64,000 bases of DNA, taken from positions 256,001 to 320,000 of the forward strand of contig JBBCGK010000001.1 of NCBI GenBank assembly GCA_037200965.1, given 5' to 3'. The stretch is from a bacterium. GTDB lineage: Bacteria > Patescibacteriota > Minisyncoccia > Phycocordibacterales > Phycocordibacteraceae. A model generated the notes under the pieces. That model saw only the letters and a program-made list of their open reading frames with translations. It had not been told where the DNA came from and searched no databases. Of the stretch, positions 2,425 through 64,000 are shown piece after piece. The first letter of the stretch is position 1. Every line of letters begins with the position of its first letter. The translations under genes were made by a program, and so were the position numbers.

Positions 2425-2426
2425 CC

Positions 2427-2958: not shown

Positions 2959-3002
2959 CAGAAATCAGAAACTCCCGCATGCGCGGGAGTTTCTGATTTC
3001 TG
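2959..3002. terminator. Perfect 20-bp-stem palindromic hairpin (loop atgc) filling the space between the convergent tRNA-Leu and tRNA-Lys. Likely a bidirectional terminator or processing element.
   Basis: The sequence cagaaatcagaaactcccgc-atgc-gcgggagtttctgatttctg is an exact reverse complement. It abuts both tRNA 3' ends. There is no U-tract. Confidence 0.6.
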
Positions 3003-3075
3003 TGCGCCTACCTGGGCTCGAACCAGGGACCGTCTCCTTAAGAGGGAGCTGCTCTACCAGCTGAGCTATAGGCGC
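3003..3075 (-). tRNA. tRNA-Lys (anticodon CTT)
   Basis: The reverse complement gives gcgccta..tagctcagctggtagagc..ctCTTaa..T-arm cctggttcgagcccagg..taggcgc+a. Confidence 0.75.
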
Positions 3076-3141
3076 GTCACCGAATCGTAGCAAACGGCGA
3101 TCGTTTTTCAAAGCGAAGTACGGTAGCATCAGCTGGTGCGC

Positions 3142-3223
3142 GCCGGGGTGGTGAAACTGGTAGACACACTAGCCTTAGGAGCTAGCCCTTCACAGGATGG
3201 AGGTTCGAGTCCTCTCCCCGGCA
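3142..3223 (+). tRNA. tRNA-Leu (anticodon TAG), class II
   Basis: Acceptor gccgggg/ccccggc, anticodon stem ctagc/gctag with loop ctTAGga, long variable arm, T-loop ttcgagt. Confidence 0.8.
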
Positions 3224-3308
3224 CAACAGCTCGTCCCGCGGCCGTTTTCACGGCATCTTGACTTTTCCTACGATTCCTGTATATTGGTACGCAGTACCAA
3301 ATTGAACC

Positions 3309-4337
3309 TTGTCAGGAAAGGGCAAACTGATGAAACATGACATCAGCTCTAGCGACAGCATTAGAACTGGACTGTGGGTATCACTTCTTGCGGGACTTGT
3401 TGCCGCACTGATCGTCTACTGGGCACTTGATGATTTTGGCCCCTATATCGCAGGTGCAGGAGCTTGTGCAGCCCTCGGCATGGTAGCTGGAACGCTCAAT
3501 AAGTCGGGCTATCTCGGCTATACCCCTCCCGGGGAAGTCGGCGCAGACACGATAAACGGTGAACTGACCGGCAGGATTCGCGGGCCAGGTTATCCGTGGG
3601 CAATTCCCGGTCTTGGCGGCCAAATCCCCCTGAACGTTCAGGAGCGTAAGATTTCACCGCGTATCTTTACCGAACTCGTCGGAAAAGTACCGGTAGAAGT
3701 TGAGCTTTTGAGTACAGGCCGGATCGTCGATGCACGGAAGCACTTCCAGGCGCAACAATCTGAAGATATCCTGCTGCCCGAGTTCATCGAAACGCAGGCG
3801 CGAGCCTTCATGGGCCCGTGGAAAGACGCCGGTGGCGTAATCCTGCAGAAGGATCTGGTTGCCGAATATCTCGGGCTCCCGGCAAAGGCAGATGATCGCG
3901 GCGAACATTCGAAGCTCGAGGCAAAACTCCTCGAGTGCACTGTCGTTACCGAAGAGGACGACACGCCCGATTTGCCAAAAAGCGCCGTCAGGACGCTTAT
4001 GGCGAACGCGGGCAAAGTGCGCGAACAAGCCGCGAAATGGGGCCTCGAAATCGGCGTGATGCAAACCAGGCATTTCGACCTTCCGCAAAGCCTGAAAGAC
4101 ATCGGCGCGCTCGCGCTTATCAACATCAAGCGCGGGGAGATGATCGAGGAACTCAAGAAGCACAAGGGTATCCCCGAGCAAGATATTCTCAACTCCGTCG
4201 ACATGCTGATGAAGCTGCCGATCACAAAATCGGTCTCGGACATCCAGATCCGCGATCTCGACGCAGTGGCGGCGCACTTCGGCAAAGCAATCGCCGAATT
4301 GCTCTTCCGCTACATCAAAAACACAGGAGGCAAATAA
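3309..4337 (+). CDS. SPFH/band-7 (stomatin/flotillin-like) membrane protein
   Basis: N-terminal TM helix, then G..R.PG....PG.G..IPLNVQER...VEV..STGRIVDA..HFQ and a later ..WGLEIGVMQTRHFDLP segment matching the SPFH beta-sheet and helix pattern. Confidence 0.55.
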   Translation: MSGKGKLMKHDISSSDSIRTGLWVSLLAGLVAALIVYWALDDFGPYIAGAGACAALGMVAGTLNKSGYLGYTPPGEVGADTINGELTGRIRGPGYPWAIPGLGGQIPLNVQERKISPRIFTELVGKVPVEVELLSTGRIVDARKHFQAQQSEDILLPEFIETQARAFMGPWKDAGGVILQKDLVAEYLGLPAKADDRGEHSKLEAKLLECTVVTEEDDTPDLPKSAVRTLMANAGKVREQAAKWGLEIGVMQTRHFDLPQSLKDIGALALINIKRGEMIEELKKHKGIPEQDILNSVDMLMKLPITKSVSDIQIRDLDAVAAHFGKAIAELLFRYIKNTGGK

Positions 4338-4819
4338 TGGCTACAGCCACCACAGCAACGACAACATCCGGAACTCAAGCGAGCGATGGACAAAATCGCG
4401 GACTCCCACCCAAAGAACTCTGGCCGCGCGTTCTGAAGTGGGGCGGCCTCGGAATCGCAGCGATCATACTGATCGCTGGAGCTAAAAGTCTTTATGCTGA
4501 TCATAAGACTCAGGAACAATCACGCCAAGCCGAAGCCGCCGTCCTTGTCTGCCCGCCCGCAAACGCAAGTTTGCAGCAATGCAGGATGCTCGTCGGAACG
4601 GTGAATAAGATCGACACGAGCGCATGCTCCACGGTCGAATTCCGGCCGATACCGAAGCCGGAATACGCCAAGGCGGAGTATCTTCCCGCCGGTCTCCGTG
4701 ACGTCCGGCAAAACTATCAGCGCTGGACGGGAACGGAAGATCTCCCGGCTCATATCGACGCCTGGCGGATCGAGCCCACTGCGGGCGAAATCCCCCAAGG
4801 CTACCAGTGCCTCAACTAG
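4337..4819 (+). CDS. Membrane-anchored hypothetical protein: poly-Thr/Ala N-terminus, one TM helix, Cys-containing ectodomain. Translationally coupled (TAATG) to the SPFH gene.
   Basis: The ATG overlaps the SPFH stop by 1 nt, with aggagg 8 nt upstream. A TM segment WGGLGIAAIILIAGA is present. A terminator hairpin follows at 4842-4885. Confidence 0.5.
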   Translation: MATATTATTTSGTQASDGQNRGLPPKELWPRVLKWGGLGIAAIILIAGAKSLYADHKTQEQSRQAEAAVLVCPPANASLQQCRMLVGTVNKIDTSACSTVEFRPIPKPEYAKAEYLPAGLRDVRQNYQRWTGTEDLPAHIDAWRIEPTAGEIPQGYQCLN

Positions 4820-4901
4820 CAGCACGTACCGCTGTCAACTTATACAACCCCCTCTCCTTTGCAGGAGCCCGGGGGTTGTTTCTTAATCCGCATCCCGCCC
4901 G

Positions 4902-5177
4902 CTAGGATGTAAACTTCGGTACCGACGGAATGCCGAACGTGCCCGTAATGACGCCCAATATGCCAAACACGCCGAAAATGATGACGAGGCCGACCAAGCC
5001 CCAGAGAATGGAACTCCTTCCCTCTTCCCGCGCGGTCTCGTCCCCGGCATTCGCAACGAACTTGAAGACGCCCCAGAGGAAGATGAGAAATGCCGCCGCA
5101 GCGATAAGCATGAGGAGCGGATTCACGATCTGCACCACGACGGTCTTGAGGAAATTATTCAATACGTCCATAGGCAT
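4902..5177 (-). CDS. Small two-TM protein with VirB2/TrbC-like topology (T4SS-pilin-like), paralog 1; no signal peptide
   Basis: Helix-loop-helix core FLIFLWGVFKFVANAGDETAREEGRSSILWGLVGLVIIFGV, shared with the five upstream paralogs. Confidence 0.55.
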   Translation of the reverse strand: MPMDVLNNFLKTVVVQIVNPLLMLIAAAAFLIFLWGVFKFVANAGDETAREEGRSSILWGLVGLVIIFGVFGILGVITGTFGIPSVPKFTS

Positions 5178-5236
5178 AAGAATAACACAAAGCCCCGGCC
5201 AGCGGCCGGGGCTTTGTGTTAAAACGCCGGGAGAAA

Positions 5237-5590
5237 CTAGAAGTCTGCCTGCGGAAGCGGAGGCGTCGCGTTATTGGTCGAGAAGGTACCTACGAGGATA
5301 TTCACGAGGCCCCAGATCGAGACCATAACGAAGAAGCCGATAAGGCCGTAGAGCATGAGTTTCTTGCCCTTTTCCTTCGCGTCTTCGTCGTTCGCCCCGA
5401 TGATGAAGACCTGGAAAGCGCCCCAGATGAAGACGATGAAGGCGACGGCAAAGAGCACCGGCACCAGGACGTTATTGATGATATTGATGACCGTGGTACC
5501 CACATCGGATACGCTTGAGATAGTGGCGGCACCGGCAAGGAGCGGCGTCAAAAGTGCGATTGCGGCAAACGGCGCGAGGTATTTCTTCAT
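5237..5590 (-). CDS. VirB2/TrbC-like pilin-like protein, paralog 2, with signal peptide
   Basis: Signal peptide MKKYLAPFAAIALLTPLLAGAA, then the two-hydrophobic-helix core VLFAVAFIVFIWGAFQVFIIGANDEDAKEKGKKLMLYGLIGFFVMVSIWGLVNIL. Confidence 0.6.
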   Translation of the reverse strand: MKKYLAPFAAIALLTPLLAGAATISSVSDVGTTVINIINNVLVPVLFAVAFIVFIWGAFQVFIIGANDEDAKEKGKKLMLYGLIGFFVMVSIWGLVNILVGTFSTNNATPPLPQADF

Positions 5591-5699
5591 AATGGTGATA
5601 TTCGTATAATGGCTCCCCGGCGTTGAGCGGAGTTCCCCTTATTCTAGCTTGCCTTCGCCCCAGGGCAAGCCGCGTCCCTGATTCGTGTGGATAAGAACC

Positions 5700-6122
5700 T
5701 TAAAGGGTCGGGTAGTCGGGCCGCGCGTATCCTCCAAGGCCGAGCGTATTGGAGAGGATATTGACCAGGCCCCACAGCGAGAACATCACCACGAAACCGA
5801 TCAGCCCCCAGAGGATGAACTGCCTTCCTTCCTTGCGCTTGTCCTCGTCCGCACCGCCCACGATGAAGTAGTTGAAGACGCCCCAGAGGAATACAAGGAA
5901 GGCGATGGTAAACAGGATGGGTACGAGAATATTGTTGATGACCACGAGCACAAGATCGCCGTAGTGGCCGAAGGCGCCCGCATTAACAACCGACACCGTC
6001 GGCCCCGGGCTTATCTGCGGAGTCCCGTCTCCCGTGACAGGATCGATCGCCGCAGCCGCATAGGAACAAAGCGGCGCCCCAAGAACCAGAAGCGCGATCA
6101 GGAAAGGAAGATATCGTTTCAT
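5700..6122 (-). CDS. VirB2/TrbC-like pilin-like protein, paralog 3, with signal peptide and a variable Gly/Pro/Thr-rich segment
   Basis: Signal peptide MKRYLPFLIALLVLGAPLCSYAAA; core FLVFLWGVFNYFIVGGADEDKRKEGRQFILWGLIGFVVMFSLWGLVNIL. Confidence 0.6.
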   Translation of the reverse strand: MKRYLPFLIALLVLGAPLCSYAAAAIDPVTGDGTPQISPGPTVSVVNAGAFGHYGDLVLVVINNILVPILFTIAFLVFLWGVFNYFIVGGADEDKRKEGRQFILWGLIGFVVMFSLWGLVNILSNTLGLGGYARPDYPTL

Positions 6123-6128
6123 ACGGGA

Positions 6129-6446
6129 TTAATAAGAAGTCGGATAAGCCGGATGGCGGTACCCGCCAAGATCGAACGTGTTAACGAGTATGTTGACCAG
6201 CCCCCATACCGAAAGCATGACGAAGAATCCGACGAGGCCGTACAGGATATACGTGCGGCCCGTCTCGCGTTTCGTTTCGTCGTCCGCGCCCAGTATGAAG
6301 TATTGGAAGACGCCCCAGATGAAGACGATGAAGGCGACGGCGAAAACGAGGGGAACGGCGACATTGTTGATGAGGCCGAGAATAGTACCGGCGATGCCCT
6401 GGAGGTTGCCGCAGTTTCCTACGCACAGCGAGAATGAGAATCCCAT
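6129..6446 (-). CDS. VirB2/TrbC-like pilin-like protein, paralog 4
   Basis: Core FAVAFIVFIWGVFQYFILGADDETKRETGRTYILYGLVGFFVMLSVWGLVNIL. Lies 6 nt downstream of paralog 3. Confidence 0.55.
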   Translation of the reverse strand: MGFSFSLCVGNCGNLQGIAGTILGLINNVAVPLVFAVAFIVFIWGVFQYFILGADDETKRETGRTYILYGLVGFFVMLSVWGLVNILVNTFDLGGYRHPAYPTSY

Positions 6447-6457
6447 ATGGTTTAGTA

Positions 6458-6703
6458 TTATAGCGCGATTATGCTAAGGCCGATGCGTATCAATCCCCAG
6501 ACCCCGAACATGACCACAAGCCCGATCAGCCCCCAGAGGATGAACTGCCTTCCTTCCTTGCGCTTGTCCTCGTCCGCGCCGCCCACGATGAAGTAGTTGA
6601 AGACGCCCCAGAGGAATGCGAATCCCGCAAGCGCAAAGACGACAGGAATGACAATCCCGCCTATGATGGCTACGATCGAATTGACGAGTTCGGCAAAGGT
6701 CAT
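6458..6703 (-). CDS. VirB2/TrbC-like pilin-like protein, paralog 5. Start chosen at the internal Met (MTFAELVNS...) because the N-terminal extension shown in the ORF track overlaps the upstream gene.
   Basis: Core FAFLWGVFNYFIVGGADEDKRKEGRQFILWGLIGLVVMFGVWGLI is nearly identical to paralog 3. The ATG lies 1 nt after the stop of the upstream gene. Confidence 0.5.
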   Translation of the reverse strand: MTFAELVNSIVAIIGGIVIPVVFALAGFAFLWGVFNYFIVGGADEDKRKEGRQFILWGLIGLVVMFGVWGLIRIGLSIIAL

Positions 6704-6704
6704 A

Positions 6705-7247
6705 TCAGGTGCCAAGCGCCTGTACCGTCGCCTGGATTCCGAGCGAGATCGCCTTGGCGCCAAGGAGAATGAGCGCTCCGACGACCGTCCACAGGAGCGC
6801 CTCGCGCGCCTCCTTTATTTTTTCTTCCGCTCCCTGCGCGGTCACGAATTTGAAACCTACGTAGACGAGCATCAAGACGATGACGATGCCGCCGATCTGT
6901 ATCACGAGGTCGAGGACGGCATTGAGGAAATCCGGAATCGTCGAAAAGCCGAGAGGATTCGTAAGGCCGCTTCCGCCTCCCCCGCCGCCTGGAACCGTTC
7001 CCGCCGGACGGCATACTCCCGCCACGCAGGTATCAGTGCCGGTGCAGGCAGGCTTGCAGGCTGAACCGCCGGGAACGGTACCGGCCGCTTGGCATTTGCC
7101 GTTGACGCATGTATCGGTACCGGTGCAAGCAGGAAGGCAGGCGGAGTCGGCGGCCTGCGCAGGAGCAGGTACGAGGATAAACACCATGAGAAACGCGACC
7201 GTGGCCGGAACAATAAAATACTTGCCTGTAGCGTTCATGATTTTCAT
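6705..7247 (-). CDS. Pilin-like paralog 6: signal peptide, two tandem Cys-rich repeats (ACxPACTGTDTCVxGxCxxAGTVPGG), a Gly-rich linker, then the VirB2-like two-TM C-terminal core
   Basis: Start at MKIMNATGKYF (ATGA overlap with the stop of the SBP gene). Repeats ADSACLPACTGTDTCVNGKCQAAGTVPGG and SACKPACTGTDTCVAGVCRPAGTVPGG. C-terminal FKFVTAQGAEEKIKEAREALLWTVVGALILLGA. Confidence 0.55.
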   Translation of the reverse strand: MKIMNATGKYFIVPATVAFLMVFILVPAPAQAADSACLPACTGTDTCVNGKCQAAGTVPGGSACKPACTGTDTCVAGVCRPAGTVPGGGGGGSGLTNPLGFSTIPDFLNAVLDLVIQIGGIVIVLMLVYVGFKFVTAQGAEEKIKEAREALLWTVVGALILLGAKAISLGIQATVQALGT

Positions 7248-8542
7248 TGTATCGCCTGAGTCAGCGCGCGCTCGGCGGAAACAAGGGCTTCGCTTAGGGA
7301 TACGCGTCCGGTAATCACGTCCATAATCATAGCGCCGAATATGCGGTCCGTATCCTCGGGCGCTGGGGACAGCCATCCCCGGCTTATAAGCGCTTCGCGA
7401 TAAAAGACCGAAGCGAAAGGATCGGCGGGCTCGGTTCCAAGAAGCGACAGGCGTGCGGGCGCAAGCCCCGTGGCGCCCGCAAGCGCGGTCATAACCGCGG
7501 GATCCGCGAGCGCGACGGCGGCGCTATAGGCACCGGCGGGGTTCGGACTCCCTTTGGGGATAGCGAACGCGTAGAGGTCGCCGAACGTAATCCGGTTCAC
7601 GGCATTCCCCGTCTGCGGCAAGGCCGCGACATCGAAATCGAGATTGGGATTCGCCGCACGCAGGAACGGCGCATCGGACGCGAAGCCGATATACAGCGCG
7701 AGATCGCCGGAGACGAACGCCTGCCTTGAATCCGGGAGCGACCCGTTCCAGGTATAGGAAACTTTCGAAGGATCGGCGAACTGGGTGTAGTAGCGCACCA
7801 CGGCCTCCCCGGGAGAGACGCCGCCAAAGCTTTGCGTCTCGGCGCCAAGCGATGCCTTGAGGCCGAGTGTCGTGCGGGCCGAGAGCGGTACTCCGCTTTG
7901 GAGAAAGAGCGCGGAAAGAATAGCGCCCGCGTGGTCGACGTTGGCATAGGTTCCAAGACCGATGAGCCCGCGCTCGATGTTCCTCCCTCCGTCAAGCTGC
8001 GCCGTACGCGGCACGAGTCCGACAAGGGCCTCCCATGCCGACGGAGGAGCTACGATACCGGCGGACGAGAGAGTCGCGCGGTTGTAGTAGAGGACGAGCG
8101 GATCGACCGCGAGCGGAATGCCGTAGACCCCGTCGGACGCAAGGAAAAGCTGCCCTTCCTGCACGAACGCGTCGGTAAAGGCGCGCGCCGAAATCGAGCT
8201 GTACGGGATCGGTATAAGCTTGTCCTCAAGCGAGACGAGATGCTCCTGGCTTATGAGCACCAGGTCGGGGCCCGTACCCGACGCCAGAGCGTCGACGAGT
8301 TCCCGTTCGAAGGTCGCGGGCTGCTTGCCGACATACCGTATGCCCTTAAGCTCGGTATTCTGGCCCGTAATGTTCGCAAGAGCCGGGGCGATCTCGTCCT
8401 GAGGGAGCGTGCCCCATATCGTCACCGTCCCGATGGAGCCGGTGCCGGAGGAGCCGGTGAAGGTCGCGAAGACGAAGATGCCGATTAGCGCGAGGAGGAC
8501 AAACGCGCCGATGATTCCCGCCTGGAAAAATGAGATCTTCAT
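7244..8542 (-). CDS. Extracellular solute-binding protein (family-1 SBP-like; ABC-type sugar-binding fold) with an N-terminal membrane anchor
   Basis: Start taken at MKISFFQAGIIGAFVLLALIGIF. Motifs LISQEHLVSLEDKLIPIP and GVYGIPLAVDPLVLYYNR are typical of SBP_bac_1. Confidence 0.6.
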   Translation of the reverse strand: MKISFFQAGIIGAFVLLALIGIFVFATFTGSSGTGSIGTVTIWGTLPQDEIAPALANITGQNTELKGIRYVGKQPATFERELVDALASGTGPDLVLISQEHLVSLEDKLIPIPYSSISARAFTDAFVQEGQLFLASDGVYGIPLAVDPLVLYYNRATLSSAGIVAPPSAWEALVGLVPRTAQLDGGRNIERGLIGLGTYANVDHAGAILSALFLQSGVPLSARTTLGLKASLGAETQSFGGVSPGEAVVRYYTQFADPSKVSYTWNGSLPDSRQAFVSGDLALYIGFASDAPFLRAANPNLDFDVAALPQTGNAVNRITFGDLYAFAIPKGSPNPAGAYSAAVALADPAVMTALAGATGLAPARLSLLGTEPADPFASVFYREALISRGWLSPAPEDTDRIFGAMIMDVITGRVSLSEALVSAERALTQAIQ

Positions 8543-8543
8543 G

Positions 8544-9074
8544 TTAGGGAGCGGTAAATACGATGCCGTAGTGATGGGGGCCGGCGCTGAACTTCTTAAC
8601 CACATGGAAACCGGCGGCGGCAAAGACCGCTTCGGCCGCTTGTTCGTTCACCACGTGTGAAGGGTCCGGGCCGAGCCCCCCGTACGCTCCGGCCCAATCG
8701 ATGACCAGAAGCTTCCCTCCGGGCTTAAGAATACGGCGCAGTTCGGCCGCGACTATCGCCTTCTCTTTTATCTGAAACAGCGTGTTGGAAAGAATCGCAC
8801 CGTCGACCGCCTGATCCCGAAGCGTGGTTCCGCGCGGCTTCTCGATATCGCCCCATACGGTTTCTATGGTCCGCACCCCCTGCTCCCGCGCCGTTCCCTG
8901 AATGCGCTTCAGCACATCCTCCTGAACATCGATCGCATATACCCGCCCGTCCACCCCCACGGCGTGCGCCGCGGCAAGGGAATAGTGTCCGCTCCCCGCC
9001 CCGAGGTCCGCCACTTTCACTCCTTCCCTGAGGCCCATCTGCAGTACGTTCGTCTTCGGATCGGCGAAATTCAT
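8544..9074 (-). CDS. Class I SAM-dependent methyltransferase
   Basis: Motif I VADLGAGSGHYSL, and acidic residues after beta-2 (AIDVQED). The stop lies 1 nt before the SBP start. Start chosen at MNFADPK, with a tatact -10-like box upstream; the longer start at 9125 is also possible. Confidence 0.65.
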   Translation of the reverse strand: MNFADPKTNVLQMGLREGVKVADLGAGSGHYSLAAAHAVGVDGRVYAIDVQEDVLKRIQGTAREQGVRTIETVWGDIEKPRGTTLRDQAVDGAILSNTLFQIKEKAIVAAELRRILKPGGKLLVIDWAGAYGGLGPDPSHVVNEQAAEAVFAAAGFHVVKKFSAGPHHYGIVFTAP

Positions 9075-34133: not shown

Positions 34134-34757
34134 TTATCTCATTCGCAAACGCTCCCGCAGATATTCGAAGTCGCGAAAGTTACTTCCGGCAAATTGTTTG
34201 AGTTCTTTTGCCGTGCGGGGCCCGCGGGAAAGCACCAGCACTTCTTTCCCTCGCTCCTTAAGATGCTTCAAGACCGGCAGGAAATCACCGTCACCGGAAA
34301 GAATTAGCGCGCGATCCAGAGATTCTTCTTCCTTCATGAGACGGAATGTCATGTCCACATCGCAGTTGGCTTTACGGCGCGTGCTGCCGTCTTCCTGTTC
34401 GTATGACTTCACTGGCTTGAGGAAGAGCGTATAGCCGAATTCTTCGAGTTTCCGATAGAACCGCACGCGCTTGAGATGTCGATTGATCAGGACAATATTG
34501 GCATCATCTAATATATCCGCTCCGTCTTTGAGCAAACCGATGAGATAGTTCTCCAGCGCCGTTATCGGAACGGTCTCGGCAGCCAGATAATCATAAGGAA
34601 AGTTATGCAGTTCGACGCCGCCGAAATAGTGCGCTTGAATGACTCCGTACTTCTCTTTCAGATAGGCCAGGAGCTTTTCATAGTCTATTTTCCACCCCAA
34701 GCTCTTCTCTCCTCCATAGAAGAGGTTCGAGGCATCAATGAATGCAATGCTTCGCAT
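34134..34757 (-). CDS. NYN-domain (LabA-like, PIN-related) protein
   Basis: AFIDASNLFY...CDVDM...LILSGDGDF..VL..L...GKEVLV. Confidence 0.7.
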   Translation of the reverse strand: MRSIAFIDASNLFYGGEKSLGWKIDYEKLLAYLKEKYGVIQAHYFGGVELHNFPYDYLAAETVPITALENYLIGLLKDGADILDDANIVLINRHLKRVRFYRKLEEFGYTLFLKPVKSYEQEDGSTRRKANCDVDMTFRLMKEEESLDRALILSGDGDFLPVLKHLKERGKEVLVLSRGPRTAKELKQFAGSNFRDFEYLRERLRMR

Positions 34758-36440: not shown

Positions 36441-36515
36441 GGTGCAAGCGTCCTTCGGCGCTGATTAGAACATCCCGCAATACAATGGCATAAGGATTAT
36501 ATAACGCAAGCGCTG

Positions 36516-36587
36516 TGACCCCGACGGGAATCGGACCCGTGTTTGGTCCTTGAAAGGGACCTGTCCTAACCATTAGACGACGGGGCC
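36516..36587 (-). tRNA. tRNA-Glu (anticodon TTC)
   Basis: The reverse complement gives ggccccg..D gtct/ggac..anticodon stem ggtcc/ggacc with loop ctTTCaa..T-arm acggg-tccgatt-cccgt..cggggtc+a. The T-loop is slightly unusual (TCCGATT). Confidence 0.65.
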
Positions 36588-36645: not shown

Positions 36646-36731
36646 GGAGGCGTCGGATAGTGGTTTATTCCAGCGGTTTCGAAAACCGCCATACCGCAAG
36701 GTATCGTGAGTTCGAATCTCACCGCCTCCGC
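36646..36731 (+). tRNA. tRNA-Ser (anticodon CGA), class II
   Basis: Acceptor ggaggcg/cgcctcc, anticodon stem gcggt/accgc with loop ttCGAaa, long variable arm, T-arm gtgagttcgaatctcac. Confidence 0.8.
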
Positions 36732-36871
36732 AAATCGAAGCGGGAAAGAAGTTGAAGAAGCCACAGGCGTATATTTCAAAGATAGAACGAGGCGAGCGCG
36801 GCGTTGATGCAGTCGAGCTCGCGGAGTTCGCAAAGGTTTACGGAAAACCGATGGATTATTTTATCAGGTAA
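36731..36871 (+). pseudogene. N-terminally truncated XRE-family (Cro/C1-type) HTH gene remnant abutting the tRNA-Ser 3' end
   Basis: The in-frame translation ...LKKPQAYISKIERGERGVDAVELAEFAKVYGKPMDYFIR* covers only helix 3 onward of an HTH_3 domain. No start codon or helix 1-2 precedes it. The frame runs into the tRNA. Confidence 0.5.
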
Positions 36872-36883
36872 CGTTTCATCATT

Positions 36884-37171
36884 ATGGAAGCAGAAGCACA
36901 AAAAGAGGTTTCAGAAAAGAAAAAATTTATAGATTTGAAACCGAACAAGCTTTCAATGGTTCTTCTTGCCGTGAGCGTAGTGGTTATATTTGTCTACGAC
37001 CACTCTGACGTTATTGGCTTGCTTGGTTTTCTGTTGGGCTGGCTGGTCGCCGTCATTTTTTTGGAAAGATTGGCTCGATTTATTTTCTCAAAGGTTTCTA
37101 GGGGGACTGCTCTCAACATCGCGCTGGTTGTGTATCTCATCATTTTCTTTCTCGTGCGCGGCGGCTTCTAA
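36884..37171 (+). CDS. Small membrane protein, hypothetical (AT-rich island)
   Basis: 95 aa, two TM helices; GC content markedly below the window average. Confidence 0.4.
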   Translation: MEAEAQKEVSEKKKFIDLKPNKLSMVLLAVSVVVIFVYDHSDVIGLLGFLLGWLVAVIFLERLARFIFSKVSRGTALNIALVVYLIIFFLVRGGF

Positions 37172-37183
37172 GGAAGTTCGCGC

Positions 37184-37636
37184 ATGGTACTTTTCTTTCG
37201 CAGTAAAAATGAGCTGCTGTATTTTTTCTTAGGAATAATCTTCATTGCGCTTCCCGTAGGGATCGCGCTTGAGTACGTGGGAGTTAGTTTAGACGTTTAT
37301 GAAATGGCCGCGCTCGGTGCTTTTGGTGCGCTGCTTATTGTGCTACTCGACAAATTCCTTGCCCGAAGAAAAATGGAGCGGATCGCCCTTTTTTGGGTAG
37401 AGCGACAAGCACACGATTTGGCGGAAGCATCAAAACGCTACCCGATAAAAAATAAGCCGGATAATTCCGCAGCCTTTGATACACACTTGGCGTATTTCAA
37501 CGAACTTAGCGATATATCAAAAAGGGAGGGCATGAAGAAATTCAAACTCTCTGAAAAAGACTGGCATGACTTCCTCGGCTATATGATAATGAAGTCAAAA
37601 AATGACAAGACCAAACCGCAGCCTGCGCGACATTGA
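37184..37636 (+). CDS. Membrane-anchored hypothetical protein (AT-rich island)
   Basis: 150 aa with two N-terminal TM helices and a soluble C-terminus. Confidence 0.4.
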   Translation: MVLFFRSKNELLYFFLGIIFIALPVGIALEYVGVSLDVYEMAALGAFGALLIVLLDKFLARRKMERIALFWVERQAHDLAEASKRYPIKNKPDNSAAFDTHLAYFNELSDISKREGMKKFKLSEKDWHDFLGYMIMKSKNDKTKPQPARH

Positions 37637-38168
37637 GTACGAAATCGTAAACCAGATATACCTCTGCGAAATCTGTTTTGATGTCTGTAAGGCAGTACCG
37701 AAACTACCCGGGCGCGGAAGCGATTTTTTGCCTTTCTATTACAACCTCAACTTTTCAAAGGGTGTTATCTCGCTCCACAGTTTATTGCTCTCAAACTCGC
37801 CAGGCGAGCTATCGATAAGAAACTTCCTCGCTCAATACAAAGCAGACTATTCACGCGAAGACACCGCAGAAATTGAGGCAAAAGTCGCTTCCATTGCCGA
37901 TGCGTTCAAAAAGGTTCTTCCTCTCTCATTGCGGCATAAGGTCGCCGCGCACATTGACCAAGAATTCAAGCACGCCAATTTTACAAGTGCGTATATCGTC
38001 CCCGATGCGGCAGAAAAGTATGCAGAAATTGTGCGCAAACTGAAAGATGCCATTTTTGCTTTTACAAATTACGCGCAAGACGATTACCCGCACGGCAGGA
38101 TTTTAGAGCAGTCAAAGACGGCAATTGAGCAAATAATTTCGGAATCTGATGAGACGTATCGTCTTTGA
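37602..38168 (+). CDS. Hypothetical protein, possibly HEPN/abortive-infection-like (R-x5-H motif)
   Basis: 188 aa and all-alpha in character. Contains SLRHKVAAHID, which fits the HEPN R-x(4-6)-H signature. Low GC. Confidence 0.3.
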   Translation: MTRPNRSLRDIEYEIVNQIYLCEICFDVCKAVPKLPGRGSDFLPFYYNLNFSKGVISLHSLLLSNSPGELSIRNFLAQYKADYSREDTAEIEAKVASIADAFKKVLPLSLRHKVAAHIDQEFKHANFTSAYIVPDAAEKYAEIVRKLKDAIFAFTNYAQDDYPHGRILEQSKTAIEQIISESDETYRL

Positions 38169-38635
38169 GTTATGGGGAGCCAGTCCTGCCGTTTTATAAT
38201 GTTTCCTAAAACGACGGGGCTGGCTGTGCGCGGACTGGGTGGGTGGGCCAAGCACATACAAACATGACTGCGCCCTAGCGCAGACCGCAGTGTATTGCGC
38301 CTCGGATCGCCTTTTGATTACGGAGCAAGGGGCTTCAATGTGGATACTTTGTTGCCCCTTGTGGAGTTTTCAAAACGCGACGCAAACCAAAAACTTCCTT
38401 TCCTCTTTTTCGCCTTTCGGCGGAGGGGTGGGGGGAGGAGCCGGAGAAAGAAATGCAAGGAAACTTTTGGGTTTGACCGCGCGAGTCCGCGAGCGCGGCC
38501 GAGGCGCGTTCAGGTCAGGTGGGTTCGCGCAAAGGTGATACACTCACCGCCCAGTACCGATATTCGAACTTGACAAAAGCTCTTTTACTAAAAAGAACAG
38601 CCCGATTTAACGGACTGCAGTTGAAAAGATTTATC

Positions 38636-39190
38636 TCAATTATGAAGCTGAATGTTGATAACCACTTTCTTCGGCACTTTGCCGTAGATGGCTTCAAGAT
38701 AAAACCGACTGATATCCATCCAGATACCTAGCCAGAGCGTGAACACAAGCTTTTCGCGATTCAGGCCGAGATAGGTCGGCTCGAGCGAGACAGGGTCGTA
38801 ACCGAGGCAATATTCGTCTGGCCTTTCACCGCCAATGGATCTGGTAGTGATTCCCGACTTCCAGAAGTGATGGAACCTCAATTCTCCTTCTTCCTCTTTC
38901 CAAAGTCGGAAGTGCCCGATTCGGTCCTTATTAACTCCGCCTTCCCATTCTTTCTCTTCCTGGCGCTCTGCATCCTTAATGGTGACCTCACCTTGGCCGG
39001 GAGAGTACCCCGATACGTCTTCACCAGAAGACCTTGTACGGGAGCGATATTTCATTTGAATACGTTTCGATTCTTTGAGTCCGGAGCCGTATTTAACAAC
39101 CCTTCGTGCCGCCTCTCGATTCTCGTCGATCCGTGCGATAATTTTCTCAAGAGCGGCATTTACCGCCATTCGCTCTGTATTCGATGTCAT
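38636..39190 (-). CDS. Hypothetical protein (AT-rich island)
   Basis: 184-aa ORF with no recognisable motif. Confidence 0.4.
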   Translation of the reverse strand: MTSNTERMAVNAALEKIIARIDENREAARRVVKYGSGLKESKRIQMKYRSRTRSSGEDVSGYSPGQGEVTIKDAERQEEKEWEGGVNKDRIGHFRLWKEEEGELRFHHFWKSGITTRSIGGERPDEYCLGYDPVSLEPTYLGLNREKLVFTLWLGIWMDISRFYLEAIYGKVPKKVVINIQLHN

Positions 39191-39320
39191 CCAGGTTCTC
39201 CGAGGTTGAAGTTACTACCTATCCGAATACTTTATATAAGGAGCGACTGGCTCGGTCAAACATCCTCTTCAGGGGCCTGTTTCAAATCAGGAAATGTTAA
39301 AGTAAGCGGACTTATAGCCT

Positions 39321-40007
39321 ATGAACCTCCAAATCGAGCACCTAAAAGGCAAAACGGACTTGCTGCAAAAGAAACTCGGCCATCCTGACTATCGCGCTAT
39401 CTACGGCACGGGCTGTATAACGCAGCCTGATGTGTGTCTGATTTTGATGAACCCAACGGCGAGAAACGTTTCAGTACATAAACAATGGAAAGGACTCAGG
39501 GCTTCGTGGCTCGGGACAAAAAACATATGGAAACTCCTGTACCAGCTCGGTTTCCTAGACAAACAGACTTTTACAGCCACTCAAGACAAAAAGCCTCGGG
39601 ACTGGGATGATGCATTTGCGAGGAGTTTGTATACGAAGCTTGCCGAAAAGAAAGTGTTTCTAACAAACCTGGGCCGGTCCACCCAGCCGGATGCGAGGCC
39701 CCTTCCGAATTCCGTATTCGCGGCGTGCGCTCCCCTGATGGAAGAAGAGATCGATTTCATCAGGCCGAACGTAGTGATTACGTTCGGAAATCAGGTGAGC
39801 TCTGTTTTGTTGCAACGGCCGATAAAGGTTTCGGAAGTGAGGAGAAAGCCGTTTGAGCTTAAGACGAAAGGCGGCGTTTATACGACGTACGCGACCTATT
39901 ACCCCGTGGGGATGGGCATTATGAACATGGGTAAGGCGGCGGAGGATATCAAATGGATTCTTTCAAAGCATTCCATCAAAGAACTCCCGGCAAAGCTCCG
40001 CGCCTGA
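39321..40007 (+). CDS. Uracil-DNA glycosylase-superfamily protein (family 4/6-like)
   Basis: GTGCITQPDVCLILMNPTARN resembles the UDG motif A (GxGxxx + hydrophobic + GE/NP), and VVITFGNQ and YYPVG resemble motif B. Confidence 0.45.
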   Translation: MNLQIEHLKGKTDLLQKKLGHPDYRAIYGTGCITQPDVCLILMNPTARNVSVHKQWKGLRASWLGTKNIWKLLYQLGFLDKQTFTATQDKKPRDWDDAFARSLYTKLAEKKVFLTNLGRSTQPDARPLPNSVFAACAPLMEEEIDFIRPNVVITFGNQVSSVLLQRPIKVSEVRRKPFELKTKGGVYTTYATYYPVGMGIMNMGKAAEDIKWILSKHSIKELPAKLRA

Positions 40008-40021
40008 GGTATGCTTGAACC

Positions 40022-45924: not shown

Positions 45925-46352
45925 ATGGGGAACAGTATACGCGAACGACAGGCTCGCGCGCCCAAAAGCGCGGCATAAACAGGGAAGTCGGAGCGGGGAA
46001 ATTGCGGGAGGGAAGTCGGACAAGGGGATTGCATTGTGTCTCGTTAGAAAGGCTATGTGCTGTCACATAGGGACTGCTGCTGCGTGCATCCAAAAAGGGT
46101 CTTGATCACCGCAGCCGAGCGATAGAGAGCCTATCCGGGACTATTTGACAGTATATGAAGATTGTATAGTTATCCACAGGTGCCGTTTACGAGATAAAAT
46201 CTAGATAAAATCTCGGTTAGGCAAGTTTTGTGTTTTGAGGTCATAAAATTATGACACGACTCCCCTGCTCCGCTGCTTCGTTTCAGCAAAATTATGTATC
46301 TCGTATCAAGAACTTATCGAGATCTGTATTCTTGAGTGTTTCAAATATACGG

Positions 46353-47030
46353 ATGCATTCGCGCTTTGAATACCTAAAGAACGAGGCGGTGAAGTTGCGC
46401 AAACGTGGAAAATCGTTGAGAGCCATCGAAGGCCTGCTTGACGTTCCTCGTTCGACACTCAGCGGGTGGCTTAAGAACGTTTCCCTGAGTGCGAAACATA
46501 AAGCGTCCCTCGAGAGGAAATGGAGGCTGGCGCTCACGATCGCAAGAACCGAAGCGGTCCGTTGGCACAATACCCAGAGAAACAAGAGACTGGAAGAAGC
46601 CGCTGAGGCAGCAGAAAAGACTCTTCAAAAGATAGGAGACGACTCAGAAATGCTTGAGCTCGCACTCGCTATGCTCTATCTCGGAGAAGGCGGAAAGACA
46701 AAGACGTCTCTTACTCTTGGAAACTCAGATCCGCTCATCGTGCGGTTTTATGTCAACGCGCTTGAGCGTTTATACGGAATCGCCAAAAGCAGGCTGCGGG
46801 CCGAGTTGCATTTGCGCGCGGATCAGGACGAAAACAAGTTAAAAAGATTCTGGTCGAAAGCGACCGGAATTCCCTTGAGACGTTTTGTATACAGCGTAAA
46901 GGATCAGCGCACTTTGGGCCGCGCGACCTATCCCGGGTATAAGGGCGTTTGTGCGGTATCCGGCGGGGGTGTGGCAATCCAGAGAAAATTAATGTATCTT
47001 GCTAAAGCATTTACAAAACGACATTCGTAA
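46353..47030 (+). CDS. HTH plus LAGLIDADG homing-endonuclease-like protein, paralog 1. The track ORF starts at 46251.
   Basis: HTH LRKRGKSLRAIEGLLDVPRSTLSGWL, LAGLIDADG-type motif LALAMLYLGEGGKT, then LGNSDPLIVRFYVNALERL. The stop lies 2 nt before tRNA-Val. Confidence 0.65.
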   Translation: MHSRFEYLKNEAVKLRKRGKSLRAIEGLLDVPRSTLSGWLKNVSLSAKHKASLERKWRLALTIARTEAVRWHNTQRNKRLEEAAEAAEKTLQKIGDDSEMLELALAMLYLGEGGKTKTSLTLGNSDPLIVRFYVNALERLYGIAKSRLRAELHLRADQDENKLKRFWSKATGIPLRRFVYSVKDQRTLGRATYPGYKGVCAVSGGGVAIQRKLMYLAKAFTKRHS

Positions 47031-56159: not shown

Positions 56160-56209
56160 GCCGTGAAGCTATGAGGATAATGCCGGAAATTATAGCACTG
56201 GTTTTTGAG

Positions 56210-56282
56210 TGTCCCCACCCGGAATCGAACCAGGATCGGAGGCTTAGGAAGCCCCTGTTCTATCCAATTGAACTATGGGGAC
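56210..56282 (-). tRNA. tRNA-Arg (anticodon CCT)
   Basis: The reverse complement gives gtcccca..tagttcaattggatagaac..stem ggggc/gcctc with loop ttCCTaa..T-arm cctggttcgattccggg..tggggac+a. Confidence 0.75.
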
Positions 56283-56288: not shown

Positions 56289-56921
56289 TTATACTAGCCG
56301 TTTACCTGATTCTGCGCCAATAAGACCTATGGCACTTTGCACGAATAAGCGTTCCTGTATCCCCGACGACACCCGAACTCGGCACATTCCGTACGGCAAT
56401 TTCCCTTTCTTTTTCCCTTTGATTATTTCAATCCTGGTAATCTTTGCGATCGGCAACCCGGTAACTCGAGCCCAGAATATCTTCGCTCTTTGAACAGGGA
56501 TATCATCATGAAGCCGGAGAGAAAGCGAGAGTCTTGCTGATGCAATGTTAAGCGTACGAAGACAGCGGAGGAAAGTACATATAAGAGATGGATCTGAATT
56601 TATCAATGAAAAGTCCTTTTTCGTACCTTCACCCCAATAAATGCCAATAAGGAGAAACAAGAGATCTCTATTTGAAAGCCTCCCCAAAGCTGACGACGAG
56701 CGCTCCAGGATACTTTCGCGTCGAGCTTGGGAGCGCTCTCGTGAACCTCCTTGTTTCCCCCTAAGCAGCGCCTGAAATTCGGGAAGGACTGAAACATGCT
56801 GAACGTAGCGCAGCACGGTTGTTTTGGAGGTTCCTGTTTCTTTAGAAATTTCCGGAATACTTTTGCCTTTTTTTCGTAAATGTACAACTCGGTTACGCTG
56901 TTGCTCGGATATTTTTCTCAT
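56289..56921 (-). CDS. HTH plus LAGLIDADG homing-endonuclease-like protein, paralog 3
   Basis: HTH LRKKGKSIPEISKETGTSKTTVLRYV, LLFLLIGIYWGEGTK, then LINSDPSLICTFLRCLRTL. The stop lies 6 nt upstream of the tRNA-Arg 5' end. Confidence 0.65.
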   Translation of the reverse strand: MRKISEQQRNRVVHLRKKGKSIPEISKETGTSKTTVLRYVQHVSVLPEFQALLRGKQGGSRERSQARRESILERSSSALGRLSNRDLLFLLIGIYWGEGTKKDFSLINSDPSLICTFLRCLRTLNIASARLSLSLRLHDDIPVQRAKIFWARVTGLPIAKITRIEIIKGKKKGKLPYGMCRVRVSSGIQERLFVQSAIGLIGAESGKRLV

Positions 56922-61414: not shown

Positions 61415-63217
61415 TTATCGGTCGCTTCCCTGCACCATTTTCATGAACACCTCTTCCGGAATATTTACCTTCCCCGTACCGTGCTCCTTGAGCTTCTTCT
61501 TTCCCTTCTTCTGCTTCTGAAGAAGCTTGTTCTTGCGCGATACGTCGCCGCCATAGAGCCCTGCCGTCACGTCCTTCCTCATCGCCGAGAGCGAGCGCGA
61601 AGCGATGATGCGTCCGAGTGCCCGCGCCTGAATTTTCGCGACGAACTGTTGTTTGGGAAGTATGTCGTGGAGCTTTTCGACCATCTTCTCCCCTTCCTCC
61701 TGTACCCGCCTCCTTGAAATCACGCGCGCGAACGCAGGCACCGGCTCCTCCGCGACGAGGATGTCGAGCCGTACGACATCCGCCGGACGCTCGTCGAGGA
61801 ATTCATACGAGAGCGACGCATACCCCGACGATACGCTCTTTACCCGGTCGAAAAAGCCGCGCATGAGTTCCCGAAGCGGCATCTCGGCCGTCATCTCGAT
61901 GCGCCCGTCGTCATAGCCGATGGTACCGGTCGTGTTCGCCTCATGCTCGTGAAAAAGCTGCACCAATGCGCTCACCGCATCCGGCGGCATAAGCACTATC
62001 ACCTTCACCCACGGCTCTTCGATGAGCTCGATATCCCCGAAGTCGGGAAAGCGCGAAGGAGTATACACGACTTCCCTGCCCTTGCGGGTCGTGACCGCGT
62101 ACGCGATGGTCGGGATGGTGACGATAAGGGCGAGCGAGAACTCGCGCTTCAAACGTTCGGAAATGATCTCGAGGTGGAGCATGCCGAGGAATCCGCACCG
62201 GAAACCCCGGCCGAGCACTCCGGACGACTCCTCCTCAAACGAAAGCGAGGAATCGGTGAGCCGGAGGCGCTCGAGCGCCTGGCGAAGCAAGGGAAGGTCA
62301 TCCTGACTCTCGGGGTATACCGAGGCCCAGACGACCGGCCGGGGCCGCTCGAAGCCTCCCAGGGCCGGGAGAAGGCCTCTTGGAACCCCTATCGTATCTC
62401 CCACCGCCACCACCCCCGGCTCCTTGACCCCGGTGATCACATACCCGATCTCGCCGGGGCCGAGCATCTCGGCAGGAGTTTCGTCGGGCGCGAAGATGCC
62501 GACTTCAAGCGCGGTGAAGGTATTCCCCGCTGCATGGAATAGAAGCGGCTGTCCTTTCTTCAGGGTTCCGTCGAAGACGCGCAGATAGACGGTGACGCCG
62601 CGATGCGTCGAATATGAAAAGTCGAAGATGGTCGCGCGCGGTTCGTCCGCGACCGCGGCGCGCGGCGGAGGCACCCGGTCGACGACCGCCCCGAGAAGCT
62701 CGTCAACCCCCTCGCCGCTTTTGCCGGAGACCGCGAGTACCGTGTCCGGAGAAACCGCAAGGAGTTTCGCGAGCTCCTGCTTCACTTCCGGCACGCGCGC
62801 GTACGGTGAATCGATCTTCGAGACGACCGGTATGATCGTACAGCCCGCGTTCTTCGCCATCGCGAGCGTTGTCAGAGTTTGCGCCTGGACACCCTGCGTC
62901 GAGTCGACGAGGAGGAGAACGCCTTCGACCGCGGAGAGCGCCCGCGACACTTCGTATGAGAAGTCGATATGCCCCGGCGTGTCGATGAGGTTCAAAACAT
63001 AACTCGTTCCGTTCTTTTCGTACTTCATCCGCACCGGCTGCATCTTGATCGTGATGCCGCGCTCGCGCTCGAGGTCCATGCGGTCGAGCACCTGGTCCCG
63101 CATCTTGCGCGTCTCTATGGTGTGGGTGGCCTCAAGAAGCCGGTCGGCAAGCGTCGACTTACCGTGGTCCACGTGTGCCACGATGCTGAAGTTCCTCAGA
63201 TTATATAATTGTGCCAT
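61415..63217 (-). CDS. lepA: Elongation factor 4 (LepA)
   Basis: NFSIVAHVDHGKSTLADRL, DTPGHIDF, and the LepA-specific C-terminal domain. Confidence 0.9.
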   Translation of the reverse strand: MAQLYNLRNFSIVAHVDHGKSTLADRLLEATHTIETRKMRDQVLDRMDLERERGITIKMQPVRMKYEKNGTSYVLNLIDTPGHIDFSYEVSRALSAVEGVLLLVDSTQGVQAQTLTTLAMAKNAGCTIIPVVSKIDSPYARVPEVKQELAKLLAVSPDTVLAVSGKSGEGVDELLGAVVDRVPPPRAAVADEPRATIFDFSYSTHRGVTVYLRVFDGTLKKGQPLLFHAAGNTFTALEVGIFAPDETPAEMLGPGEIGYVITGVKEPGVVAVGDTIGVPRGLLPALGGFERPRPVVWASVYPESQDDLPLLRQALERLRLTDSSLSFEEESSGVLGRGFRCGFLGMLHLEIISERLKREFSLALIVTIPTIAYAVTTRKGREVVYTPSRFPDFGDIELIEEPWVKVIVLMPPDAVSALVQLFHEHEANTTGTIGYDDGRIEMTAEMPLRELMRGFFDRVKSVSSGYASLSYEFLDERPADVVRLDILVAEEPVPAFARVISRRRVQEEGEKMVEKLHDILPKQQFVAKIQARALGRIIASRSLSAMRKDVTAGLYGGDVSRKNKLLQKQKKGKKKLKEHGTGKVNIPEEVFMKMVQGSDR

Positions 63218-64000
63218 TGCGCCTTCGCTGTTGAATATTGCTTAATACCTTATTCGCGTCGGAAACCCTCTTTTGGTGCGTCAGAAAAGGCTTAAGCAAA
63301 AAGATGAGCACCTCAAGTGAGCTTGATTCGTTGACCGAGACTCTCCATACGTTCTGTTTCCATATCCATCCGTAATCATTGTCGCCCTTTCGCGCGATAA
63401 TACGGGACTTGCTGCGAATACCAGAGCGAAGAAATAACTTGTGGATATCGGCAAGAATTGCTTGATCGTAGGCGTCAATCTTGAACCTTCCCTTTCCTTG
63501 ATTCAAGCCAAACGTGCCCTCCGCGTCAATATAGCCAGCCGCGAAAGCCCATAGTAGCGTTTCGTTCGAAGAAAGCCAGCGGCGCATTCCGGGCGGATAC
63601 TTTCCGAGCAGAAATGTAAAGGATCGATTGAGATAACAGTTCAGGTGGGCGCTTCGGGAATTACGAGAAATAGTAACAGTACCGTACTGGCAAAACAGCT
63701 CCTTAAAAAGTCTCTCCTGCGCTAGATGGGTGGTGTGACAACGAACAACAACTGTTTCTGACACACCCGGTGGGACATACGCGTTCAAATCTCCATATTT
63801 GAAACCGAGCAGATATGCTTTATCAATGTCTGATCCGCTAAAGTCCTTCCTTGGATACTTAGTTTGCGCAGCGCTCTTACTTTTTAGAGAAATGTCTGCT
63901 TCAATAAGGCGATTTCTGATCGTTATTGAGGTGCAACCGTATTTTTGTGCAATTTTCGCCGGACTCCATTTCCTATGAAGATATAGTTTCTCTAAATCGG
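63201..64000 (-). CDS. HTH plus double-LAGLIDADG homing-endonuclease-like protein, paralog 4. The N-terminus lies beyond the window end. It overlaps the lepA start region by 17 nt.
   Basis: Upstream of the track start, the same frame continues to the window edge: ...WSPAKIAQKYGCTSITIRNRLIEADISL (HTH) ...KAYLLGFKYGDL (motif 1) ... LLWAFAAGYIDAEGTF (motif 2). Confidence 0.55.
   Translation of the reverse strand, partial: DLEKLYLHRKWSPAKIAQKYGCTSITIRNRLIEADISLKSKSAAQTKYPRKDFSGSDIDKAYLLGFKYGDLNAYVPPGVSETVVVRCHTTHLAQERLFKELFCQYGTVTISRNSRSAHLNCYLNRSFTFLLGKYPPGMRRWLSSNETLLWAFAAGYIDAEGTFGLNQGKGRFKIDAYDQAILADIHKLFLRSGIRSKSRIIARKGDNDYGWIWKQNVWRVSVNESSSLEVLIFLLKPFLTHQKRVSDANKVLSNIQQRRRNGTII

Follow-up and report, generated by a model that had tools for sequence, protein, structure and literature searches.

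A decayed cassette at a Patescibacteria tRNA-Ser gene as the probable cargo of a tRNA-targeting serine-recombinase element

The described systems that come closest to the locus analysed here are tRNA-linked genomic and defence islands with decayed integrases, elements of the SCCmec Ccr, XisF and Tn4451/Tn5397 type, HEPN proteins of the AbiU2 abortive-infection (Abi) family, and type II toxin-antitoxin (TA) systems with an XRE antitoxin. The genomes of Patescibacteria, also referred to as the candidate phyla radiation (CPR), are tiny, and few mobile elements or defence systems have been recognised in them. We analysed a 64,000-nucleotide stretch of a Patescibacteria genome (assembly GCA_037200965.1, contig JBBCGK010000001.1, positions 256,001 to 320,000; hereafter the window, in whose coordinates features are given), with a focus on a cassette that begins directly at the 3' end of a tRNA-Ser gene and contains a truncated XRE-family gene, two membrane-protein genes and a gene for a HEPN-like protein. 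HEPN proteins carry two sequence signatures, namely E-x3-[KR] and Rx4-6H with a polar residue (N, D or H) after the arginine (PMC3710099). The superfamily is further characterised by a four-helix up-down alpha fold, often with an insert between helices 2 and 3 and with the arginine-histidine motif where helix 3 ends or the following loop starts, and by metal-independent RNase activity that depends on the arginine and histidine. A 2026 paper on a related idea links defence systems with small serine recombinases, a different enzyme class; the literature searched in full text contained nothing on this cassette or on serine-recombinase integrants at tRNA genes in Patescibacteria.

We conclude, with a probability of about 0.7, that positions 36731-38550 constitute the cargo module of an integrative element of Patescibacteria, which uses a large serine recombinase to insert into tRNA genes at their 3' ends. 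This reading draws on the homology of every part of the stretch to loci elsewhere, on the junction between the tRNA gene and the first cassette gene, on terminal repeats, and on the association of related cassettes with tRNA genes and recombinases. The presumed attachment site, tRNA-Ser(CGA) (36646-36731, + strand), and a divergently oriented tRNA-Glu(UUC) (36515-36587, - strand) were both identified with ARAGORN and Rfam; the Rfam scan of 34-42 kb yielded these two tRNAs and no further known RNA. The first-pass annotation of this DNA had reported about 3.3 kb of low-GC sequence beyond the tRNA, and a check of guanine-plus-cytosine (GC) content bore this out, with 36731-40010 at 0.478 as compared to 0.590 +/- 0.024 for all other 3.28-kb windows (z = -4.7; the lowest of all). 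The composition of the cassette itself is likewise distinct from that of its host (0.472, as against 0.589 +/- 0.032 on average in windows of equal length; z = -3.7).

The first gene of the cassette is a pseudogene fragment of an XRE/HTH_3 regulator (36731-36871, + strand) that consists of codons 28-73 and the stop codon and follows straight after the tRNA, as the first-pass annotation had recognised. Pfam HTH_3 matches this fragment with E = 2.4e-8 and 34.3 bits, above the Pfam cut-off, at profile positions 12-55 of 55 only, and BLASTP aligns it with residues 28-73 of intact 73-amino-acid (aa) XRE proteins (50% identity with that of L008 and 83% with that of L072; L numbers designate the loci compared). 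Homology starts at Q28, which is the first codon past the tRNA end; where intact proteins read EAGLT and then Q(V/I)EAGKKL, the window has the tRNA-derived CTCCG and then CAA ATC GAA. Microhomology at the junction is limited to CG (CTCCG followed by CAAATC in the window vs TTAACG followed by CAAGTA in an intact gene). Residues 1-27 are replaced by the tRNA, such that the start codon, the promoter and helices 1-2 are absent, and the window gene does not encode a complete five-helix Cro/C1-type domain with a start codon. We also considered whether integration had split the gene, with attP located inside XRE; no N-terminal XRE fragment was found anywhere in the window (best E values of 0.14-0.3, which represent noise), and a mere split of the gene upon integration is therefore rejected.

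The first-pass annotation had itself named an intact XRE gene with a non-canonical start as a contrary case, and a working short gene of this kind, whether started at TTG or at another non-canonical codon, would make the locus an ordinary native operon. The frame is indeed open from 36710 (following a TGA at 36707-36709), reading VRISPPP and then, past the tRNA, QIEAGKKLKKPQAYISKIERGERGVDAVELAEFAKVYGKPMDYFIR up to the stop codon, and the HTH_3 score noted above is that of a bona fide domain match by the Pfam cut-off. The absence of a start codon holds for canonical codons, while a TTG at 36752, the sole in-frame start, is present. This TTG, however, is the codon for the conserved leucine of GKKLKK and would yield a product of 39 aa without helices 1-2, whereas all intact homologues have 26-27 additional N-terminal residues that provide these helices. 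The upstream portion of the frame is, moreover, the tRNA itself, and clear decay is seen in counterparts of the fragment, with an in-frame stop in L057 and with deletions and a frameshift in L033 and L047. We thus regard a working short gene as very improbable. Among these counterparts, L057 represents a second, independent truncation, in which a tRNA-Gln gene ending in GCCA is fused to XRE at about codon 32 and is followed by the in-frame stop. L033, which has the same tRNA pair as the window and CAAA right after tRNA-Ser, retains an XRE remnant of only ~45 bp and is more decayed than the window; further states of decay are represented by L047-49 (with deletions and a frameshift in L047), L051/52 and L069/71.

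Downstream of the XRE fragment, open reading frames (ORFs), hydropathy and Pfam upheld the gene content given in the first-pass annotation, i.e., two membrane proteins, a 188-aa protein with an R-x5-H motif, a 184-aa protein on the opposite strand and a protein of the UDG superfamily. The first membrane-protein gene (36884-37171, + strand) occupies the position of the first variable middle gene and encodes a 95-aa product with about three hydrophobic segments and weak similarity to middle genes of other cassettes; the second (37184-37636, + strand) encodes a 150-aa product with two N-terminal hydrophobic segments and overlaps the 188-aa gene (37602-38168, + strand) by 35 bp. None of the 95-aa, 150-aa and 188-aa proteins had a match above threshold in Pfam, NCBIfam, PHROGs or PADLOC-DB 2.0, and the XRE fragment had only generic helix-turn-helix (HTH) matches in PADLOC-DB 2.0, in which no model of a known anti-phage system was matched. 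The arrangement itself is recurrent: a 72-77-aa XRE protein, then one to three membrane proteins of variable families and then a protein of ~185 aa are found in about 25 Patescibacteria metagenome loci, and this gene order is seen in L009, L050-L058, L060, L063, L064, L069 and L072.

Related cassettes are usually located just 3' of a tRNA gene. At least eight independent contexts have a same-strand tRNA gene 0-2.5 kb upstream of the cassette; these comprise tRNA-Ser (tga, gct and cga), tRNA-Gln, tRNA-Thr, tRNA-Lys and tRNA-Asn. The 32-nt 3' half of the window's tRNA-Ser was found in 33 Patescibacteria genomes, and in L031, L027 and L022 the gene for a large serine recombinase is convergent with tRNA-Ser and lies at most about 125 bp from its 3' end or overlaps it; L031 (Kaiserbacteria, contig MFMU01000002.1) carries a tRNA-Glu/tRNA-Ser(cga) pair identical to that of the window. 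From the upstream tRNAs and the recombinases at tRNA ends, it follows that tRNA 3' ends, above all those of tRNA-Ser, are the attachment sites. In L009, tRNA-Ser(tga) is followed by a gene for a large serine recombinase in opposite orientation and then by the cassette, and L056 and L065 also have the recombinase upstream of the cassette in the same order. The recombinases of these relatives have Resolvase, Recombinase and Zn_ribbon domains, and their best NCBIfam matches are CcrB, CcrA and XisF, all far below cut-off. The missing enzyme, which the first-pass annotation had referred to as an integrase, is thus a large serine recombinase and not a tyrosine integrase. Inverted repeats of 42-229 bp with 93-100% identity bound the cassette in seven loci (L009, L054-56, L058, L063 and L065), with near-perfect repeats of 100-230 bp in intact copies, and contigs frequently terminate where the right repeat ends on its outer side; the L009 element has the cores TCTCCGC and TCACCGC on its two sides.

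A number of these relatives show features of interest in their own right. The L008 and L009 contigs (samples ERZ24794644 and ERZ24794645) derive from separate assemblies and are identical over a shared 3131 bp (0 mismatches); L009 2612-7093 merged with L008 (L009 coordinates 2612-8793) forms a chain of adjacent inverted repeats, with 134 bp (98%) around the recombinase gene rec536, 229 bp (100%) around the XRE-to-HEPN cassette and 135 bp (100%) around a second recombinase gene, rec501; tandem accretion is seen in these loci. The first repeat of this chain begins within the 3' end of tRNA-Ser(tga), and each repeat overlaps the next by a core of 6-7 bp, GCGGTGA/TCACCGC. The chain may consist of terminal repeats that belong to separate modules, of invertible segments or of att hybrids. 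In L031, an 88-bp inverted repeat (97% identity; 97-184 and 1586-1673) flanks the recombinase, and its outer ends carry CCGCC/GGCGG, derived from the tRNA terminus. L063 contains an exact 23-bp repeat of the tRNA-Asn 3' end (3134-3156 and 5309-5331), located 2.2 kb downstream and just ahead of the left repeat of the cassette, which suggests that the tRNA was the integration site of another element and that this element displaced the cassette. In L027 (Saccharibacteria, 796-3390), the ORF for the recombinase (1842-3317) and the 3' end of tRNA-Ser(tga) overlap, and the ORF is preceded by a gene for a 349-aa protein, which may be a replication protein; this recombinase family appears to carry other cargo, too.

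The region 38169-38635, described in the first-pass annotation as a 470-bp non-coding gap, does not encode a conserved protein; it is, by contrast, conserved at the DNA level in related cassettes and holds both a conserved hairpin and the remnant of a right terminal inverted repeat. In at least eight other loci, positions 38175-38260 have a counterpart right behind the HEPN-like gene. The hairpin (38181-38222, + strand) has a 15-bp consensus stem (~18 bp in the window's own fold) and the loop ATAATGTTTCCT, shows compensatory changes in 3 of the 15 consensus stem pairs, and is kept in L008/9, L010/53, L047-49, L050, L051/52, L069, L072 and L023; the window copy folds at -36 kcal/mol (z = -2.1). 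It probably represents an operon terminator or a 3' element of the cassette. The loop of 12-13 nt, ATAAT[A/G]T[C/T]TCCT, is strongly conserved (other copies are found at L009 6559-6612 and L050 1899-1952), which suggests more than a plain terminator. In L023, the hairpin (4994-5040) is located 27 bp past tRNA-Ser(gga) with no cassette, as though the rest had been deleted.

The right repeat remnant (38377-38551, with the match extending to 38554) matches L009 6822-7048 and L050 2178-2319 (83%) and includes a palindromic hairpin at about 38384-38475. Its terminal core, CTCACCGCC at 38543-38551, is the same 9-mer that is found in the 3' half of tRNA-Ser(CGA) at 36718-36726, and the reverse complement of its outer end, GCGGTGAGTGTATCACCTTTGCGCGAACCCAC, can be aligned to the ends of the repeats in L009 and L056, which read GCGGTGA...TTTGCGCGAACCCAC. 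This alignment defines the cassette as 36731-38550. The interpretation as a decayed element at a tRNA gene, proposed in the first-pass annotation as a decayed integrative element or defence islet, stands, while its recognisable extent is 1.82 kb rather than 3.3 kb, with the genes for the 184-aa protein and the UDG-superfamily protein outside the unit.

The remaining 1.5 kb contain a terminator-like hairpin found by terminator scan (38597-38618, - strand), which belongs to the 184-aa gene and to flanking DNA beyond the cassette, the 184-aa gene itself (38636-39190, - strand; GC 0.49) and the UDG gene (39321-40007, + strand; GC 0.50). The latter encodes a weakly family-4-like protein, which passes the Pfam UDG cut-off (E = 7e-8; 33 vs 24.3 bits) and matches NCBIfam UDG_fam4 with E = 1e-10 and 41.6 bits, below its cut-off of 125.3. 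The profile search proposed for the 184-aa product gave no family match, its predicted structure gave no assignment, and no link of either gene to the cassette was found in the loci compared; this DNA may represent separate accessory DNA. A classical tRNA island, with a tyrosine integrase, attL/attR direct repeats and the 184-aa and UDG genes as cargo, would instead take in all of 36731-40010. Such an island would fit the position next to the tRNA and the low GC content of the entire stretch, given that 38551-40010 is at 0.486 and that GC recovers only past about 40.0-40.8 kb. Homology to other cassettes, however, ends at 38550-38554, no tRNA-end repeat of 12 nt or more occurs downstream, the 184-aa family is found in unrelated neighbourhoods elsewhere, and the enzymes associated with the cassette in relatives are serine recombinases rather than tyrosine integrases. 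A single island of this extent consequently seems quite unlikely.

The conserved cargo gene is that for the 188-aa HEPN-like protein, which carries E69-x3-R73 and LRHKVAAH (R111-x5-H117, i.e., R111-H-x4-H117). It has 62 homologues at 46-77% identity, most of which are on metagenome contigs while those named to organism are Patescibacteria metagenome-assembled genomes (MAGs), and an exhaustive profile search of 1.84 billion representatives recovered only about 30 clusters (50% identity); the family is almost confined to Patescibacteria-type metagenome contigs and MAGs, and searches with wider alignments reached no annotated family. Across 22 diverse relatives, the most distant with 19-25% identity, E69, R111 and H117 are the only invariant residues. 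R111 and H117 are also invariant in 25 close relatives; the motif reads LR[HN]K..AH, with H or N after the arginine, and most members of the core family have E69-L-S-I-[RK]73. The family thus shows both HEPN signatures, i.e., Rx4-6H with a polar residue and an upstream E-x3-[KR]. Two distant relatives, P0103 and P0090, have weak HEPN_AbiU2 matches in the same profile region, and the predicted model of the 188-aa protein is all-alpha with a predicted local distance difference test (pLDDT) score of 81.5. Neighbours of homologues include DpnI, a KAP NTPase and AAA_14/DUF4143; Abi_C, DUF6119 and a ParB-methyltransferase; and type I restriction-modification (R-M) genes, all of which are defence-island contexts. 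In L002/L003 (3920-6549, Magasanikbacteria-type), the HEPN-like gene is located 18 bp behind the gene for a 687-aa KAP-family NTPase with no XRE or membrane-protein genes, and the HEPN-like protein therefore pairs with other partners, too.

On the basis of these motifs, the 188-aa protein is probably a HEPN-type RNase toxin. It could, in principle, be another helical bundle, such as a hemerythrin- or DinB-like metal-binder or an adaptor, in which case the operon would serve a membrane-associated accessory function outside defence. Once distant relatives are included, C25 and H124 lose conservation and H59 and C29 (the latter still >90% conserved) are not invariant, whereas the three residues that alone stay invariant fit both HEPN motifs. 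Furthermore, the weak AbiU2 matches come from three different members and all fall on the motif region, and R-M, Abi and KAP genes are found as neighbours. We thus consider a non-HEPN bundle doubtful.

Several observations weigh against the proposed cargo module and its function. As the first-pass annotation had stated, no integrase is left, and more broadly no recombinase or integrase is detectable in the 64-kb window; in addition, no left repeat of the cassette survives there. The proposed search for an attR copy of the tRNA end, performed with a 22-mer allowing up to 3 mismatches and with a repeat finder, gave no long copy of the tRNA-Ser 3' end in the window but only chance 11-12-mers; the sole shared segment is the 9-bp CTCACCGCC, located where the right repeat ends on its outer side. 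This 9-mer occurs in 3 copies in the window vs 0.8 expected, which is not significant by itself. With recombinase, left repeat and long att duplication gone, the history of the element is reconstructed from relatives only. Conserved synteny in all relatives had been raised as a case against an acquired origin; the genes that flank the window's tRNA-Ser are not conserved beside it in the 33 genomes with the shared 3' half, and relatives also differ on the right flank, such that the right boundary cannot be set by synteny. No phage, plasmid or viral relatives were found by tblastn against phages and plasmids or by a scan of viral contigs. With regard to the 188-aa protein, the first-pass suggestion of a HEPN/Abi candidate is supported by both HEPN signatures and by relatives in defence islands, but the match to Pfam HEPN_AbiU2 (PF18734) is below threshold (16.7 bits, E = 0.005, gathering cut-off 26.8), only 4 of 25 relatives match this profile (best E = 0.001), and membership in AbiU2 is therefore not established. 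A profile search of PDB gave no match, Foldseek gave nothing at E <= 0.001, and the motif loop is modelled at low confidence (pLDDT 44-54). Finally, we infer the defence role from neighbouring genes alone.

Comparison with relatives suggests the following history. Intact copies consist of the tRNA, then the recombinase gene between inverted repeats of its own, and then, between a second pair of inverted repeats, XRE, one or more membrane-protein genes, the HEPN-like gene and the hairpin. A deletion, estimated at ~2 kb by comparison with L009, would have reached from the last base of tRNA-Ser(CGA) to XRE codon 28 and would have taken the recombinase with its repeats, the left repeat and promoter of the cassette, and XRE codons 1-27. 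Loss of the recombinase and left repeat would thus have stranded the cargo in the chromosome, with its HEPN-like gene and both membrane-protein genes intact. As two deletions, those in the window and in L057, end exactly at a tRNA terminus, we infer that the cleavage site of the recombinase may have been involved through aberrant excision; microhomology-mediated deletion combined with selection against tRNA damage is the alternative.

The 188-aa protein would be a metal-independent HEPN RNase and serve as effector in a defence module of the abortive-infection or toxin type, in which the variable membrane proteins may be a partner, a sensor or a restraint. The operon would normally be under repression by XRE. 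Since XRE and the promoter are gone, expression in the window would need read-through from tRNA-Ser or an internal promoter. Three independent XRE-less copies (the window, L057 and L047-49) have an intact HEPN-like ORF, which makes a regulatory role of XRE more likely than that of an essential antitoxin. The GC content of the 188-aa gene, 0.457 vs 0.30-0.38 in homologues, is compatible with long residence in a genome of 58% GC, and hence with retention, or alternatively with a GC-richer donor.

A more far-reaching and, in our view, rather speculative proposal is that these loci represent an undescribed modular class of Patescibacteria elements, in which recombinase and cargo modules each sit within long inverted repeats of their own and from which aberrant excision stranded the cargo in the window and L057. 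Adjoining repeats would meet at the 6-7-bp core C[A/T]CCGC, which would also be the crossover site in the tRNA 3' end, and recombinase and cargo modules could be independently exchanged, inverted or stranded; inversion was looked for, and the recombinase-to-cassette orientation is identical in all 3 informative loci, with a comparison limited to these three. Under this modular proposal, the cassettes in the window and L057 would result from aberrant excision by the recombinase, with the core at the tRNA end joined to a secondary site within XRE, and the host would have retained an orphan defence cargo of HEPN-like and membrane proteins while its GC content drifted from about 0.33 to 0.46.

The sequence of the locus is also available from other records. 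Proteins of the window carry locus tags WDN10_01835/01840 in MAG records, and a Logan contig of SRR28211700 (L001), an independent assembly of the same sequence, breaks at window position 36707 inside the 3' half of tRNA-Ser; this break is explained by the 32-nt 3' half that several tRNA-Ser isoacceptor genes have in common, and strain variation need not be invoked. Low-GC accessory genes seem to be scattered near tRNAs across the window. A patch at 56-57 kb (GC 0.47), in which a gene for a 210-aa protein with a resolvase-type HTH_7 domain (56289-56921, - strand) adjoins tRNA-Arg(cct) (56209-56282), may be another tRNA-linked remnant; in addition, there are genes for a LAGLIDADG-domain protein (63201-63788, - strand; GC of the region about 0.48) and for a NYN-domain protein (34134-34757, - strand; GC 0.495), and a low-GC ORF of 259 aa (46251-47030, + strand) immediately upstream of tRNA-Val(gac).

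The locus ties together an orphan family with HEPN signatures, a recurrent operon of XRE, membrane-protein and HEPN-like genes, and a tRNA-targeting serine-recombinase vehicle with unusual modules bounded by inverted repeats; for annotation, the pseudogene, the supposed non-coding gap and the low-GC patch are explained together. A cargo that functions in abortive infection would represent an additional, CPR-specific defence system and would mean that the host retained the cargo of a mobile element after deletion of the mobility gene.

Compared to HEPN Abi/AbiU2 proteins (PF18734; Anantharaman et al. 2013, PMC3710099), the 188-aa family is alike in its all-alpha predicted model and length of ~185 aa, in its R-[HN]-x4-H motif and upstream E-x3-[KR], in the location of relatives next to R-M and other defence genes, and in weak Pfam matches on the AbiU2 motif region; by contrast, it is a tiny family without a significant profile match (E = 0.001-0.005), and its partners are XRE and variable membrane proteins, while AbiU2 has been noted with Sel1-repeat or R-M genes. 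With type II TA systems that have an XRE antitoxin (HigA- or MqsA-like), the cassette shares a small XRE gene at the head of an operon that ends in a predicted RNase toxin; it differs by the one to three membrane-protein genes between XRE and toxin and by XRE-less copies that keep the HEPN-like ORF. Elements of the SCCmec Ccr, XisF and Tn4451/Tn5397 type resemble the relatives of the cassette in having recombinases with Resolvase, Recombinase and Zn-ribbon domains, in being small carriers of cargo at the 3' end of a conserved gene, and in tandem accretion (L008/L009). Unlike in those elements, the target here is a tRNA 3' end, family scores are far below cut-offs, recombinase and cargo are separately bracketed by near-perfect inverted repeats of 88-229 bp that share a 6-7-bp core, and the window retains no recombinase. 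The locus is also similar to tRNA-linked genomic and defence islands with decayed integrases, given the low-GC DNA 3' of a tRNA, the lost mobility gene and the defence-type cargo, but the recombinase of its relatives is of the serine and not the tyrosine type, there is no extended attR, and the remnant comprises 1.8 kb. The feature in the window is thus an instance of ordinary integrative-element decay of a known general kind, while the new parts, which appear to be undescribed, are the family of elements, the orphan family of HEPN-like proteins and the modular layout with repeats around each module.

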